Below are positions 1 to 4,966 of a DNA stretch of 4,966 nucleotides, one piece after another; the stretch's first letter is position 1; every line of letters begins with the position of its first letter. The notes below the pieces were generated by a model that ran no database searches, was not told where the DNA came from, and saw only the letters and a list, made by a program, of their open reading frames with translations. Source of the stretch: a virus (lineage: Duplodnaviria > Heunggongvirae > Uroviricota > Caudoviricetes); the IMG/VR virus record IMGVR_UViG_2663762992_000006. The stretch is one strand, 5' to 3'. Both the position numbers and the translations under genes were made by a program.

Positions 1-782
1 AAGGTCGTACAACGACGCTTGGCCGTGGAGGCAGCGATTATACGGCAGCCTTGCTGGCGGAGGCTTTACACGCATCTCGTGTTGATATCTGGACCGACGT
101 CCCGGGCATCTACACCACCGATCCACGCGTGGTTTCCGCAGCAAAACGCATTGATGAAATCGCGTTTGCCGAAGCGGCAGAGATGGCAACTTTTGGTGCA
201 AAAGTACTGCATCCGGCAACGTTGCTACCCGCAGTACGCAGCGATATCCCGGTCTTTGTCGGCTCCAGCAAAGACCCACGCGCAGGTGGTACGCTGGTGT
301 GCAATAAAACTGAAAATCCGCCGCTGTTCCGCGCGCTGGCGCTTCGTCGCAATCAGACTCTGCTCACTTTGCACAGCCTGAATATGCTGCATTCTCGCGG
401 TTTCCTCGCGGAAGTTTTCGGCATCCTCGCGCGGCATAATATTTCGGTGGATCTCATCACCACCTCCGAAGTGAGCGTGGCATTAACCCTTGATACCACC
501 GGTTCAACCTCCACTGGCGATACCTTGCTGACGCAATCTCTGCTGATGGAGCTGTCTGCACTATGCCGGGTAGAAGTGGAGGAAGGTCTGGCGCTGGTCG
601 CGTTGATTGGCAATGACCTGTCAAAAGCCTGCGGCGTTGGCAAAGAGGTATTCGGCGTACTGGAACCGTTCAACATTCGCATGATTTGTTACGGCGCATC
701 CAGCCATAACCTGTGCTTCCTGGTGCCAGGCGAAGATGCCGAGCAGGTGGTGCAGAAGCTGCATTTTAATTTGTTTGAGTAA
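1..782 (+). CDS. lysC: Aspartate kinase III (lysine-sensitive aspartokinase), C-terminal portion; 5' end lies outside the window, reading phase starts at nt 3, stop TAA at 780-782
   Basis: Frame-3 translation from nt 3 reads GRTTTLGRGGSDYTAALLAEALHASRVDIWTDVPGIYTTDPRVV... and ends ...GEDAEQVVQKLHFNLFE, which I recognise as the kinase core and C-terminal ACT-domain region of enterobacterial LysC. The ORF is open to the window edge. The other ORFs in the track over 19-682 are out of frame or antisense to it. Confidence 0.93.
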   Translation, partial: GRTTTLGRGGSDYTAALLAEALHASRVDIWTDVPGIYTTDPRVVSAAKRIDEIAFAEAAEMATFGAKVLHPATLLPAVRSDIPVFVGSSKDPRAGGTLVCNKTENPPLFRALALRRNQTLLTLHSLNMLHSRGFLAEVFGILARHNISVDLITTSEVSVALTLDTTGSTSTGDTLLTQSLLMELSALCRVEVEEGLALVALIGNDLSKACGVGKEVFGVLEPFNIRMICYGASSHNLCFLVPGEDAEQVVQKLHFNLFE

Positions 783-794
783 ACGATCAGTAGA

Positions 795-824
795 GGTGAA
801 TAGCGACCCACGACGCTATTCACC
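795..824. terminator. Stem-loop between convergent lysC and the Mor-like gene; possible bidirectional terminator and/or island boundary
   Basis: Perfect 11-bp inverted repeat GGTGAATAGCG (795-805) and CGCTATTCACC (814-824) around an 8-nt loop, 13 nt after the lysC stop and 13 nt before the stop of the minus-strand gene. There is no strong T-tract on either side, so the intrinsic-terminator call is tentative. Confidence 0.4.
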
Positions 825-836
825 ATGCCGGTTCAA

Positions 837-1184
837 TTACGAATTACTGCGGCGCTGTTGCTTTTCCGCATGTACGCGTTTCACTATCTTATAAATCCAT
901 TGCAGCGTCAGATTATATTTCTTCGCTAATTCGGCGTAGTTGCGCCCATCGCACTCGCTATAGATTTGGTAGTCACGCTCCGACGCCCGTCCGGAGATCC
1001 CTTTTGGGAAATAAATGCTTTGCCCGCCCCAGTTGCGCATCATTCGGTCGGCAATGGCAAAGCCCACATTTTCCGCCGATGAACTGTCGAGATTGATGCT
1101 TTCAATCAGAACTTGCGATGCATGAAAAGCCAGGTCGTTAATGATCTCCGGTGTCCGGACCATCTCTTTTGATTTTCGTATCAT
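837..1184 (-). CDS. Mor/C-family phage transcriptional activator (Mu middle/late operon regulator-like), 115 aa
   Basis: Complete ORF with ATG at 1184-1182, preceded by GGAGA (complement of 1191-1195) 7 nt upstream, and stop at 839-837. The C-terminal half carries the signature I recall for Mu Mor and C proteins: ...RNWGGQSIYFPKG... (glycine-rich turn followed by Y-[IF]-P-[KR]-G) then ...DGRNYAELAKKYNLTLQWIYKIVKR (HTH-like). Assignment is by motif recall, not search. Confidence 0.8.
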   Translation of the reverse strand: MIRKSKEMVRTPEIINDLAFHASQVLIESINLDSSSAENVGFAIADRMMRNWGGQSIYFPKGISGRASERDYQIYSECDGRNYAELAKKYNLTLQWIYKIVKRVHAEKQQRRSNS

Positions 1185-1390
1185 TTTTCATCTCCATATA
1201 TCTTGCATCCTGAATAAGACCCGATGCGTGTAAAACCACGGATATACGCTAAGCAGTTGTCATTACTGCTACTCAATACATTCAACAAACAAATAAACAA
1301 TCACCAGAAATATAAATTCTTAATATTAATGAACGCATAAATTCACTAAATAAATATATTGTTTGCGTTATGTTTCTTGTCAACAGGAGT

Positions 1391-1451
1391 ATCATTTTAC
1401 ACGATACTGTATGCACATACAGTATTATTTTTACCTGTAGTGTAAAAAGAT
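1391..1451. repeat. Imperfect 12-bp inverted repeat (11/12) flanking the LexA-box palindrome
   Basis: ATCATTTTACAC (1391-1402) pairs with the reverse complement of GTGTAAAAAGAT (1440-1451); the perfect 8-bp core is TTTTACAC / GTGTAAAA. Each arm contains a TTTACA hexamer resembling a -35 element, one on each strand. Confidence 0.5.
1405..1424. promoter_or_regulatory. Candidate LexA operator (SOS box)
   Basis: TACTGTATGCACATACAGTA matches the enterobacterial LexA consensus TACTG(TA)5CAGTA in both conserved half-sites (TACTGTAT / ATACAGTA, CTGT-N8-ACAG). It differs only at three central, weakly conserved positions and is itself a 10+10 inverted repeat with a 2-bp centre. Location is 221 bp upstream of the Mor-like start and 297 bp upstream of the holin-like start. 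Confidence 0.65.
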
Positions 1452-1720
1452 CGTTTCCCTCACAGTCGCTGACTTTCTTAAACAAACTTTAAAAATCAAA
1501 TAACTACTGACTATTCCTACGATTCACCATCATCTTTTCCCTGCATAATGACGCGCTTATTCGCGAGGTCACCTTTTGCTCTTTAATTGCTGAGTGGATT
1601 TATTAGCGGGCATGTTCATTTATAGAGAATCTATTTTTTAAAGTTATTTATTAAAGCTTTTTTCATTCTTCACTGGCGGGTTCTGGCGACACTAAACGCT
1701 CACTTATCAGGAGATACCGT

Positions 1721-2008
1721 ATGAAAAAAGTCACTCTTCCCCGGCTTTCCGGTTGGCTGGTCGCTTCCGTCGCGCTGTTTGTCGTGATCGGCTGGACCTC
1801 TTCAGCACAGATCCCGGTCGTCATTTATAAACTAAGCCTGGTTTCGCTTTCCGCGGTGCTGGGATACTGGCTCGATCGCAGTTTGTTCCCATGGGCACGG
1901 CCTGACTCTTTTAGCCCATGGAAGGAACCGCGTTGCTGCGCGGCGGCAATGATTCGCCGCGCCATCATCGTTGCCGCCGTCTGTCTTTCCGTCGCCTTAG
2001 GGCTATAG
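1721..2008 (+). CDS. Small integral membrane protein with three predicted TM segments; putative holin or lysis-associated membrane protein, 95 aa
   Basis: ATG at 1721 with AGGAGA (1709-1714) 6 nt upstream; stop TAG at 2006-2008. Hydrophobic stretches LSGWLVASVALFVVIGW, VVIYKLSLVSLSAVLGYWL and AIIVAAVCLSVALGL. It sits immediately upstream of a peptidoglycan-degrading enzyme gene. Atypical for a holin in ending inside the last hydrophobic segment with no charged C-terminal tail. Confidence 0.6.
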   Translation: MKKVTLPRLSGWLVASVALFVVIGWTSSAQIPVVIYKLSLVSLSAVLGYWLDRSLFPWARPDSFSPWKEPRCCAAAMIRRAIIVAAVCLSVALGL

Positions 2009-2010
2009 TG

Positions 2011-2616
2011 ATGTGGCTGAAATATATCGCGTCTATGATTATTTTCGTTCTTTTCCCTCTTAACGCCTCTGAACCGCCGCGAGCCTCTCTGGCATGGCGA
2101 AACGAACTAATTCGTACCGCTCGAGAAGTCTGGGGACTGAACGCCCCAGTGGCCGACTTTGCCGGGCAATTACACCAGGAGTCCGCCTGGCAGCCAATGG
2201 TACGTTCCCCCGTTGGCGCACAAGGCATGGCGCAATTTATGCCTGCCACAGCGACATGGATAAGCCTGTTGTATCCGCAGCTACGTGAAAATAAGCCCTA
2301 TAACCCAACCTGGGCGATTCGCGCACTGGTGCAATATGACCAGCATTTGTGGAAAAACATCTCAGCGAAAAATGATTGTCAGCGTATGGCGTTTACCCTA
2401 AGCGCCTATAACGGCGGTCAGGGATGGGTTAACCGGGATAAAAAACTGGCTGCATCCAAAGGGTTAGATGCCACTAGCTGGTTTGGTCATGTCGAGCGAG
2501 TCAACGCCGGGCGCAGCGCCACGAACTGGCGAGAAAATCGTCGCTATCCGAAGATGATCCTCTATCAACATGCCGCCCGCTACCTACTCTGGGGGCAGGC
2601 AAGCTGTCTTCATTAA
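2011..2616 (+). CDS. Family-1 (SLT-domain) lytic transglycosylase with N-terminal signal peptide or signal-anchor; endolysin-like, 201 aa
   Basis: I place the start at ATG 2011, 3 nt after the holin-like stop; the track ORF starts at 1918, but that upstream extension overlaps the holin gene. The N-terminus MWLKYIASMIIFVLFPLNA-SEPP looks like a Sec signal peptide. SLT motifs are present: catalytic Q-E-S (QESAWQP), GAQGMAQFMPATA, and AYNGG. Stop TAA at 2614-2616. Confidence 0.85.
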   Translation: MWLKYIASMIIFVLFPLNASEPPRASLAWRNELIRTAREVWGLNAPVADFAGQLHQESAWQPMVRSPVGAQGMAQFMPATATWISLLYPQLRENKPYNPTWAIRALVQYDQHLWKNISAKNDCQRMAFTLSAYNGGQGWVNRDKKLAASKGLDATSWFGHVERVNAGRSATNWRENRRYPKMILYQHAARYLLWGQASCLH

Positions 2617-2628
2617 TCAGAGGGGCCG

Positions 2629-2943
2629 ATGAAACTCAGTATCGATTTTTGGGAAGTGATCTCCCTTATGCTTTCCTTCGTTGGATTAATGTTTGCTGCC
2701 GGAAAATTGCTGTTAGCGCAAATTGAAAAAAGACTTAATGAGCGTTTTGAATCTCTGGAAAACGCGCGCCGGGAATCAGAAACAAGTTGGTCGAAACTGG
2801 AAAGAGAATTTCTCGAATTTCGTGCCGAGCTTCCGCTGCATTATGTCCGCAGAGAAGATTATCTTCGTGGCCAGGCAGTATTAGAAGCAAAGCTGGATGC
2901 CTTATATAGCAAAATAGAGCTATTACAACGCGGTAGCTATTAA
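2629..2943 (+). CDS. Membrane-anchored coiled-coil protein; candidate lysis accessory (i-spanin-like or Mu-type lysis-cassette protein), 104 aa
   Basis: ATG at 2629 with GAGGGG upstream. N-terminal hydrophobic helix ISLMLSFVGLMFAAGKLLLA, followed by a highly charged heptad-like region (QIEKRLNERFESLENARRESETSWSKLEREFLEFRAEL...LEAKLDALYSKIELLQ). Its position right after the transglycosylase fits a lysis cassette. No partner outer-membrane lipoprotein (o-spanin) was found. Confidence 0.6.
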   Translation: MKLSIDFWEVISLMLSFVGLMFAAGKLLLAQIEKRLNERFESLENARRESETSWSKLEREFLEFRAELPLHYVRREDYLRGQAVLEAKLDALYSKIELLQRGSY

Positions 2944-3060
2944 ATTCAATTTTTTCTCTAAAGCAGATTAAAAGATTCTCCACCTTCATTACGTCAGAAT
3001 ACATTTCAACGATAACGAAGTGAGCGTTAACGAATCAGCGATAATTAAGGAACACCCTAT

Positions 3061-3516
3061 ATGGAAATTTTATCAGTAATGAATTCTGTTGTGACCAGAT
3101 TACGTGAACAGAATCCCGAAATGGATGTATCTATTTCATCGGTTGATACCCATAAATATATTCCGCAGACGCAGCAAGTTACAGTGATTATTAATTATAG
3201 CGGTTCTCTATTTGCCATGCCTGAAAGCAGTGATGCTCTCGTGCAACAGCAAACGCTCCGCTTAACCGCCACCGTTATTGTTGGCAAAAATTGTGATGCG
3301 TTAAACGCACTGGACCGCATACGCAGCGCATTGGGTGGCCTTCAGCTTCCTGATTGCGATCGTCTTCTTTGGCTTGAAAAAGAAATTAATACGGGTGAGA
3401 GCGGCGGTTTCTGCCGCTACATCCTGGAAATGGCGACCAGCTCGCTGTTTATCGCTGAACAGGAAAACACGGATCTTCCCCTACTTACGGAAGTTAATTA
3501 CGAGGAAACTGAATGA
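3061..3516 (+). CDS. Phage tail-associated protein, likely Mu gp37-like (tail terminator / sheath completion family), 151 aa
   Basis: ATG at 3061 with AAGGAA RBS (3047-3052). Two genes upstream of the sheath gene and translationally coupled to the next ORF through an ATGA overlap at 3513-3516, which matches the Mu gpK-gp38-gpL order as I recall it. Family call rests on synteny and recollection, not measured similarity. Confidence 0.55.
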   Translation: MEILSVMNSVVTRLREQNPEMDVSISSVDTHKYIPQTQQVTVIINYSGSLFAMPESSDALVQQQTLRLTATVIVGKNCDALNALDRIRSALGGLQLPDCDRLLWLEKEINTGESGGFCRYILEMATSSLFIAEQENTDLPLLTEVNYEETE

Positions 3517-3710
3517 AATACATCTACAACGGCCCGGCAAGCGGCGTCACCCTTGCCGACGGACAAGAAATCTTATTGTGGCCGAACAGTGAAATTGATC
3601 TGCCAGAAGACAACGAGTGGGTCATGACCATGATTGCCCGCAATCACCTGACTTCTGTCATCACTCAGGAAGAACAAAATAACGGAGAGGAAATTGTACA
3701 TGGCAGCTAA
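3513..3710 (+). CDS. Small conserved phage protein immediately upstream of the sheath gene (Mu gp38-like position), 65 aa
   Basis: ATG at 3513 overlaps the upstream stop (ATGA); its own stop TAA at 3708-3710 overlaps the sheath start region. Acidic, with no TM segment. Function unknown. Confidence 0.55.
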   Translation: MKYIYNGPASGVTLADGQEILLWPNSEIDLPEDNEWVMTMIARNHLTSVITQEEQNNGEEIVHGS

Positions 3711-4966
3711 TTATCTGCACGGTGTAGAAACCATTGAAATTGAAACCGGCCCGCGTCCCGTTAAAGCGGTAAAATCCGCCGTCATCGCTTTAATCGGTAC
3801 GGCCCCCTGTGGTCCGGTAAATAAACCAACATTATGCCTTTCTGAAAGCGATGCTGCGCAGTTTGGCTCAACTCAGGCTAACTTTACGATCCCACAGGCG
3901 CTGAAGGCGATTTATGACCACGGTGCCGGTACGGTGGTGGTAATTAATGTGCTGGATCCGGTAAAACATGGACTGCATGTTGCCAATGAAACCATTACGT
4001 TCAATAGTGCCGATAAAGCTAAATTAGCTCATCCGGGAGTAAGTTCAGTAATATTAAGACCAGGTACCAGTTCCACTACGTACAAAAATACATCTTACAA
4101 TGTTAATGCCGCAGATGGCGTTATAACCCGTACCGGAACTGAAATCCCGGCAGGGGCGAAGGTTTACGCGACGTATACCTATGTTGATCCTACAAAGGTC
4201 ACCGCAGCCGATATTATCGGTGCCGTAAATACCGCAGGCGACCGCACAGGGATGAAACTCCTTCAGGACACCTATAACCTGTATGGTTTCTACGCCAAAA
4301 TCCTGCTTGCTCCCGTGTTCTGTACGCAAAAATCAGTAACTACCGAGCTGATTGCACAAGCGGAAAAACTCGGTGCGATTACCTACATTGATGCCCCGAT
4401 TGGGACGACATTCCAGCAGGTATTGGCAGGACGCAGTTCGCAAGGCGCTATCAACTTCAATACCAGCTCTGATCGTGCGCGTTTATGTTACCCACACGTC
4501 AAAGTTTACGATGGCATCACTAACCAGGAAGTTCTCGAACCGCTCTCTTCGCGCGCTGCCGGGCTACGTGCCAAAGTAGACCTCGAAAAAGGTTTCTGGT
4601 GGAGCAACTCAAACCAGGAAATTCAGGGTATTACCGGTATTGAACGTTCGCTTTCCGCAATGATTGATGATCCTCAAAGCGAAGTGAATCAGCTCAACGA
4701 AAACGGCATTACCACTATTTTCAATAGTTACGGCTCTGGTCTGCGCTTGTGGGGCAACCGCACAGCGGCATGGCCTACCGTGACCCATATGCGTAACTTT
4801 GAAAACGTCCGCCGGACAGGCGATGTAATTAATGAGTCAATCCGTTATTTCAGTCAGCAGTATATTGATATGCCGATTAATCAGGCGCTGATTGATGCCC
4901 TGACCGAATCAGGCATCATTCAGGATCAACACCGGGCCGCGGATTTCTGTGTCGTCCAACTGTTGC
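3700..4966 (+). CDS. Contractile phage tail sheath protein (Mu gpL-like myovirus sheath), N-terminal about 422 aa; 3'-truncated by window edge
   Basis: ATG at 3700 with GGAGAGG (3685-3691) upstream; I translated by hand to the window end with no stop codon. N-terminus MAANYLHGVETIEIETGPRPVKAV... and the later NSYGSGLRLWGNRTAAWPT (sheath-type G-[LV]-R-[LV]-W-G-x-R-T signature) are characteristic of phage and tailocin sheath proteins. Absent from the ORF track only because it has no in-window stop. Confidence 0.88.
   Translation, partial: MAANYLHGVETIEIETGPRPVKAVKSAVIALIGTAPCGPVNKPTLCLSESDAAQFGSTQANFTIPQALKAIYDHGAGTVVVINVLDPVKHGLHVANETITFNSADKAKLAHPGVSSVILRPGTSSTTYKNTSYNVNAADGVITRTGTEIPAGAKVYATYTYVDPTKVTAADIIGAVNTAGDRTGMKLLQDTYNLYGFYAKILLAPVFCTQKSVTTELIAQAEKLGAITYIDAPIGTTFQQVLAGRSSQGAINFNTSSDRARLCYPHVKVYDGITNQEVLEPLSSRAAGLRAKVDLEKGFWWSNSNQEIQGITGIERSLSAMIDDPQSEVNQLNENGITTIFNSYGSGLRLWGNRTAAWPTVTHMRNFENVRRTGDVINESIRYFSQQYIDMPINQALIDALTESGIIQDQHRAADFCVVQLL

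Follow-up and report, generated by a model that had tools for sequence, protein, structure and literature searches.

The sequence adjoining the 3' end of lysC probably marks where an old R-type tailocin cluster, fixed in the chromosome, begins on the lysC side; this cluster would have descended from a BcepMu-like prophage and been subject to loss and exchange, with a conserved hairpin at the junction acting as a 3'-end stem-loop. The window, i.e. the whole stretch of 4,966 nt that was analysed, is 100% identical over positions 1-4912 to the chromosome of Escherichia coli A10 (NZ_CP028764.1), an isolate from wood-wren faeces. The A10 region was extracted with 20 kb on each side (L001), so that subtracting 20000 from an L001 coordinate gives the window coordinate. 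The end of the window is spliced or chimeric: A10 differs after 4912, and the foreign 54 nt at 4913-4966 match rlmG of other E. coli genomes rather than the continuation of the tail sheath gene.

The 3' part of lysC, encoding the lysine-sensitive aspartokinase III, occupies positions 1-782 on the plus strand (open reading frame 51-782, TAA at 780-782, annotated as lysC in A10), and this part of the window is matched by all 5426 complete E. coli genomes. When the empty-site strain WP3-W18-CRE-03 is compared with A10 by blastn, similarity stops at L001 20784, equivalent to window position 784; positions 783-784 are the last two bases common to E. coli without the element, the break falling between 784 and 785. 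From the lysC stop codon, a 54-nt intergenic spacer leads to the convergent gene mor (837-1184, minus strand), which is divergent from the lysis and tail operon. Its 115-aa product is a Mor/C-family transcription activator, matching Pfam PF08765 over residues 10-112 with 129.5 bits (cut-off 24.9; E = 6e-38), and is 81-91% identical to the protein of the syntenic gene in five other genera. The sequence-only reading had proposed that a phage-derived module abuts lysC without a tRNA, and this is borne out by the Mor-family open reading frame and the negative ARAGORN result: no tRNA is detected at the distal side of the island, the proximal junction being lysC itself. A tRNA and Rfam search of the whole island likewise returned no tRNA, but only two signals that fall well short of the threshold, a 15-nt T-arm-like one (E = 0.065) and a chance hit to SorX. 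A tRNA-targeted integrative island was ruled out, as neither a tRNA or tmRNA at a junction (ARAGORN) nor an annotated integrase is present. The statement that a small gene of the chromosome ordinarily comes after lysC was also correct, since in the empty-site E. coli strain examined lysC is succeeded by a terminator and then by yjbD.

Between mor and the holin gene lies a divergent control region of 536 bp (1185-1720; 34% G+C), which was aligned across eight taxa. SOS-type control had been suggested from the sequence, and a LexA box, TACTGTATGCACATACAGTA, is indeed present at 1405-1424, with CTGT-N8-ACAG retained at the same aligned position in seven of the eight taxa. The box overlaps a promoter-like site identified by a promoter scan (TTTACA at 1396-1401, a 16-nt spacer and TACAGT at 1418-1423 on the plus strand), the same bases forming a TAAAAT -10 element on the mor strand. 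About 65-85 nt upstream of the holin start, an AT-rich block on the plus strand, TTAAAGTTATTTATTAAAG (1638-1656), is near-invariant in seven of the eight taxa while its surroundings are not alignable, and is a candidate for an activator-dependent, presumably Mor-dependent, late promoter region. The simplest circuit would be one in which LexA represses mor and Mor activates the lysis and tail operon.

This operon opens with a lysis cassette (1721-2943, plus strand) composed of genes for a holin (1721-2008; Pfam Holin_2-3, E = 4e-27), an SLT lytic transglycosylase (2011-2616; SLT, E = 8e-15) and an Rz-like membrane protein (2629-2943), in agreement with the A10 annotation and in the order of BcepMu gp21-23. 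The tail module starts on the same strand (3061-4912) with Gp37 (3061-3516; Pfam E = 6e-34), a 65-aa product (3513-3710) and the tail sheath gene, of which the 5' portion is present (3700-4912) up to the cut at 4912, where the window stops matching A10. In A10 itself, about 18 kb is annotated between lysC and yjbD. In order, this consists of mor on the minus strand, the 536-bp control region, the genes for holin, SLT lysin, Rz-like protein, Gp37, the 65-aa protein, sheath, tube, assembly chaperone, tape measure, gpU/X/D-like proteins, baseplate V/W/J/I and tail fibre, then a DUF4376 protein, a 151-aa protein and, in the opposite orientation, genes for a nucleotidyltransferase and a slipin. The contractile-tail set (sheath, tube, tape measure, baseplate and fibre) is complete and accompanied by the lysis cassette, with none of these genes flagged as a pseudogene in A10 and with Pfam matches in related loci. 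The A10 annotation of this interval contains no gene for a capsid, portal, terminase, transposase or integrase, nor any for replication. The G+C content of the module is 49.3%, compared with 50.4% in the flanks.

The closest phages are the transposable phages of the BcepMu type (Bcepmuvirus), namely BcepMu, phiE255, KP12 and PhiKM, to which the full-length sheath taken from L001 is 70-74% identical and Mor 44-50% identical (to gp01). In BcepMu, mor (gp01) occupies the outermost position on the left of the genome and is followed by leftward early genes including the transposase (gp02-18), the holin-SLT-Rz genes (gp21-23), the head genes (gp27-36) and the segment running from Gp37 and gp38 through the sheath to the fibre (gp37-52). 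The chromosomal cluster shares with these phages the order of mor, holin-SLT-Rz and Gp37-gp38-sheath-tube through to the fibre, but differs from them in lacking gp02-20 (GemA, transposase A/B and the repressor region), gp25-36 (terminase, portal and head) and both phage ends. Because mor is terminal at the left end in BcepMu, the lysC-side boundary plausibly descends from a phage end. Relatives of the baseplate J protein at an identity of at least 75% include the named enterobacterial carriers of the cluster, and the next best matches are at most 63% identical.

The anatomy of a tail, a lysis cassette and one activator fits that of an R-type tailocin, predicted here from the genes: the full tail set and lysis cassette are present, head and mobility genes are absent, and the genes evolve under purifying selection at a fixed locus. 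Tailocin activity would be expected on this basis. Pseudomonas R-type tailocins also occupy fixed chromosomal sites, as in the case of the R-pyocins and the Mu-derived R-syringacin between trpE and trpG. The cluster resembles them in combining a headless contractile tail with its own lysis cassette, in having no integrase or replication genes, and in holding one chromosomal slot across species with variable fibres and SOS-linked control. It differs in its BcepMu-type ancestry, in its lysC-yjbD slot, in apparently relying on a LexA box and a Mor-family activator instead of PrtR/PrtN, and in that its activity is predicted.

The literature searched on the lysC-yjbD cluster and on Mu-like or BcepMu-type tailocins of E. 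coli and Salmonella contained no description of the locus, whose genes bear the label of putative phage tail genes in reference genomes. In kind, the cluster matches the Pseudomonas tailocins that occupy conserved chromosomal sites. A tailocin has been associated with ST131, where an R2-pyocin-related tail structure was described in a prophage found across this lineage (PMC9205054); it was dropped as a candidate for the same locus, as nothing there points to lysC.

The sequence-only reading had taken the junction for an insertion at this locus, and this does not survive comparison with other genera, in which the same mor gene and operon, whose presence that reading had itself named as a refutation, were sought and found at the 3' end of lysC. 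A scan with the Mor protein of one genome per species recovers the arrangement pgi-lysC><mor-holin-SLT-Rz-Gp37-sheath-tube in Dryocola, Phytobacter massiliensis and two Superficieibacter species, and look-up adds Salmonella and an assembly bearing the label Enterobacter hormaechei; what was seen of the cluster in Citrobacter gillenii is its distal side only. The lysC-proximal position is identical in every carrier whose lysC side was examined, such that the insertion site does not vary. The distal end lies near yjbD-rluF in three genera, separated from yjbD by an SBF-type transporter gene in Salmonella and by the nucleotidyltransferase-slipin pair and rtcR in C. gillenii, while in Dryocola cluster and yjbD abut directly. 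The tail cluster is absent from the site in Citrobacter braakii, Enterobacter asburiae and Kluyvera.

The cluster recurs at this locus in Salmonella, where the genes around STM4213 of S. Typhimurium LT2, annotated as putative phage tail genes, would represent it beside lysC. In the indexed sequence collection, the baseplate protein of Salmonella occurs in 11,297 blocks. The Salmonella and E. coli copies differ in the presence of a gtr operon between baseplate V and W in the former and none in the latter, and in being followed by the SBF-type transporter gene and by the nucleotidyltransferase-slipin pair respectively. In Salmonella enterica CP066545.1 (L056 6652-9487), this insertion within the tail cluster consists of a three-gene gtr-type operon encoding a GtrA-like protein, a family-2 glycosyltransferase and a GT_STM0557_N protein. 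Some Salmonella (L027, L022 and L023) have mor alone beside lysC, either full-length or truncated; a hexapeptide-repeat acyltransferase gene and others replace the tail genes in one of them (L027 9136-10276), and the contigs of the other two (L022, L023) stop at this point.

The age of the cluster can be gauged from its divergence between E. coli A10 and Salmonella. Identity at third codon positions is 46-73% in the tail genes, compared with 53-70% in lysC, pgi, rluF, pepE and yjbD, while most tail genes are 85-98% identical at codon positions 1 and 2. For codon positions 1/2/3, the values are 93/97/52% for the sheath, 95/98/67% for the tube and 89/94/59% for gpJ, alongside 94/97/53% for lysC and 94/97/53% for rluF. 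As silent-site divergence is as saturated in the tail genes as in the flanking housekeeping genes, the cluster is as old as the genera, and the time over which it has diverged, with purifying selection acting on it, is about that of its hosts. This handful of genera suggests that the common ancestor already had it, in which case the absence of the tail cluster from C. braakii, E. asburiae and Kluyvera requires several losses. Ancient independent gains at one hot spot would be a less likely alternative to ancestral presence.

These comparisons bear directly on the proposal that a prophage recently entered a non-tRNA site downstream of lysC by Mu-type transposition. Several observations agree with it: the relatives are transposable phages of the BcepMu type in which mor is terminal, neither a tRNA nor an integrase is present, and most E. 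coli lack the element. The phage affinity that it implied is upheld, but the mechanism is not, as no transposase, integrase or phage ends are left and the site is the same in at least six genera, unlike that expected of random transposition. Direct or inverted repeats of at least 7 nt flanking the candidate boundaries were not found, nor was similarity to the end sequences of BcepMu, KP12 or PhiKM at the boundaries; a 5-bp target-site duplication would be indistinguishable from chance, since the boundaries are those of replaced sequence and are not base-exact. The transposase A/B genes, 5'-TG...CA-3' ends and varying insertion site of a Mu-like prophage are all missing, the silent-site divergence equals that of the flanking genes, and the empty site differs by replacement rather than by a clean gap. 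Recent Mu-type transposition is thus excluded by these data, and retains only a very small probability in our assessment, whereas an ancient event of this type may have founded the locus.

Within E. coli, the lysC-yjbD slot exists in at least three forms. The mor region is present in 200 of the 5426 complete genomes (3.7%) and absent from 5226, while the 15.7-kb module is matched by 206; in 172 of these, 80% or more of the module is retained, in most cases with an identity of 90-95% to that of A10. The segment on the slipin side is more widespread, occurring in 1632 genomes, and the extra ~1430 (about 26%) have a zeta-toxin configuration, exemplified by E24377A, in which the order is lysC-hairpin-zeta toxin-nucleotidyltransferase-slipin-yjbD. 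The zeta-toxin gene of this strain (L030 1970-3060) occupies the position that mor and the tail cluster have in carriers, with no antitoxin gene annotated beside it. Similarity between the tailocin and zeta-toxin alleles breaks off precisely with the lysC stop codon at the left edge and, at the right edge, with the terminator next to the nucleotidyltransferase gene. The remainder have the 'empty' form, in which a canonical terminator of another sequence is accompanied by a 26-nt relic of the region upstream of slipin; this upstream region is conserved in Citrobacter and Kluyvera, where the nucleotidyltransferase-slipin pair is found at the same locus. No remnants of RtcR or SBF genes could be detected at the protein level in the slipin-yjbD spacer of E. 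coli.

The earlier suggestion that the site has acquired an element is consistent with the 5226 genomes of 5426 that are without it, but not with an empty site formed of replaced sequence rather than a clean target. Loss and whole-allele exchange explain the patchy distribution better than transposition does. Strain MSB1_4I provides a snapshot of IS-mediated decay of the locus: an IS1 lies within the 3' arm of the hairpin (L003 4001-4100), the whole adjacent tail module is deleted, and the nucleotidyltransferase and slipin genes are both pseudogenes, the former disrupted by an IS4 and the latter through an internal stop codon. Comparison of two carriers, A10 and NCTC9699 (L001 17259-40089 against L004), reveals third-codon identities of 76-97% from pgi/lysC through rluF, compared with 97-98% at malK and yjbH; in terms of differences, 6-19% of third positions are changed between lysC and rluF, and 2-3% at the latter two genes. 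This elevated divergence implies that the alleles are old, and the pgi/lysC-rluF stretch of the chromosome comprises unusually deep allelic lineages.

The slipin-nucleotidyltransferase (Band_7-RlaP) pair at the distal side has features of its own. Upstream of it lies a conserved sigma54-type promoter, CTGGCACG.TTCT.GCAATA, after which follows a conserved structured leader of about 130-150 nt with a tRNA-like T-arm, GGGTTCGATTCCC, for which no Rfam family match was obtained (L001 38416-38830, minus strand; L030 5001-5416; L058 16227-16679; L044 8359-8809). In Citrobacter gillenii and Kluyvera, rtcR is divergent from this leader, and the layout looks like that of an RtcR-controlled RNA-repair-type operon with a tRNA-like leader. 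PADLOC gave no credible match for the nucleotidyltransferase, slipin or zeta-toxin proteins.

The hairpin between the convergent lysC and mor genes is a perfect 11-bp stem (795-824) made up of the arms GGTGAATAGCG (795-805) and CGCTATTCACC (814-824) around a loop at 806-813. With its flanks it folds at -23.9 kcal/mol (z = -5.2, with none of 200 shuffles as good), and the core alone at -19.2 kcal/mol (z = -5.3). A stem-loop lies a few bases from the mor stop codon at every lysC-proximal cluster junction, and nine distinct versions, drawn from E. coli, Salmonella, Dryocola, Phytobacter, Superficieibacter and the E. hormaechei-labelled assembly, have folding energies of -17 to -22 kcal/mol. When aligned, 94.8% of the cells of the stem are paired and seven of the 11 pairs have changed on both sides, which none of 500 shuffles equalled, while slid registers pair at 22-46%; the alignment was trimmed to the stem, which favours these counts. 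Loop length ranges between 4 and 9 nt. The compensatory changes in the stem, together with the varying loop, argue for a folded nucleic acid strand and against a protein operator of fixed geometry. Only two wobble pairs among the nine versions bear on which strand is folded; both can form as G-U solely in the lysC-sense orientation, which hints weakly at a role of the lysC transcript.

The structure travels with the mor side of the junction, since in Salmonella a REP-like element lies between it and lysC. It was not found downstream of mor in BcepMu, KP12 or PhiKM, and a scan of viral contigs with the motif GGCGTATANC...GNTATACGCC returned one true relative, on a Salmonella contig, and nine unrelated palindromes, from which it follows that the hairpin is not a dispersed phage element. 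Nor is it the ancestral lysC terminator of all enterics, which is ruled out by the other structures that follow lysC in C. braakii, E. asburiae and Kluyvera.

Two further explanations centre upon this hairpin. It had been supposed to terminate both convergent genes, and an efficient bidirectional intrinsic terminator ending lysC and mor, shielding lysC from SOS-induced transcription, would account for the position of a stable G+C-rich stem between two convergent stop codons, for its conservation with covariation, and for its taking the place of the canonical lysC terminator. The sequence does not back this supposition, as a U-tract was sought on both strands in all nine versions and is absent, with between 0 and 4 T in the next 8 nt. 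A terminator scan fails to call the hairpin while calling the terminator of the empty site, which acted as a positive control, and the lysC terminators found where the element is missing are canonical in the empty E. coli, C. braakii and E. asburiae, the latter two with a T6 tail, with other hairpins in Kluyvera. Hence the structure resembles Rho-independent terminators in being a stable G+C-rich stem-loop right after a stop codon, where relatives have a canonical terminator, but is unlike them in the want of a U-tract on either strand in any taxon, and does not belong to that class. It is probably not an efficient two-way intrinsic terminator, and we regard this as an unlikely explanation.

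The other explanation, to which we accord a slightly lower likelihood still, is that the lysC-yjbD gap is a recombination hot spot, with the hairpin as an att-like site or cassette boundary for the exchange of cargo or its independent capture. The hairpin family is the leftmost piece common to the tailocin and zeta-toxin configurations, following lysC even in the latter, which lacks mor, and it is missing after lysC where there is no cargo, as in C. braakii, E. asburiae, Kluyvera and the empty E. coli; the breaks at the lysC stop codon and at the right-hand terminator also suit such exchange. However, no recombinase is encoded at any locus examined, a stem that drifts with compensatory changes around a loop of varying length fits a folded nucleic acid and not a sequence-specific core site, the motif is confined to the single Salmonella copy among viral contigs, and the tail genes co-diverge with their hosts. 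The hairpin of the zeta-toxin allele may have been left behind by a tailocin since lost, or may be a border that has persisted while cargo was exchanged. On balance, the hairpin is read as a selected 3' stem-loop in place of the lysC terminator, most likely marking and protecting the 3' ends of the lysC and mor transcripts.

The observed anatomy, synteny, age, loss of mobility genes and hairpin covariation can be assembled into the following history of an old tailocin cluster. A BcepMu-like transposable prophage with a mor-terminal left end would once have resided just downstream of lysC, and would then have lost its transposase and early region, its head genes and both phage ends. Left over in the lysC-yjbD slot of several genera would be mor, the LexA-controlled divergent region, the lysis cassette and the complete contractile-tail module. 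Variation of the slot in E. coli would have arisen through deletions, some of them IS-mediated, and through whole-allele exchange by homologous recombination in the flanks, with no new insertion, while the hairpin would block 3'-to-5' exonucleases on lysC and mor transcripts whose termination is inefficient or depends on a factor. A bolder account, which is put forward tentatively as one possibility, is that the slot has kept a working, uncharacterised BcepMu-derived tailocin with a LexA-to-Mor switch since before the split of Escherichia and Salmonella, that in E. coli it is one of several deeply diverged alternatives for the slot, and that the hairpin, covarying and without a U-tract, is both the 3'-end element of lysC and the fixed left border at which cargo is swapped.

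An island junction made by transposition has thus been largely explained away, and the locus becomes an ordinary, modest target for experiment. What it offers is a domesticated phage-tail cluster at one chromosomal address across genera, as with the Pseudomonas tailocins, and a candidate SOS-inducible killing device, seemingly unstudied, in enterics including LT2 (STM4213) and about 4% of E. coli. The hairpin provides a small, clean case of a covarying 3' stem-loop replacing a canonical terminator. More broadly, the distribution of the cluster illustrates that presence in some strains and absence from K-12 can reflect loss rather than gain.
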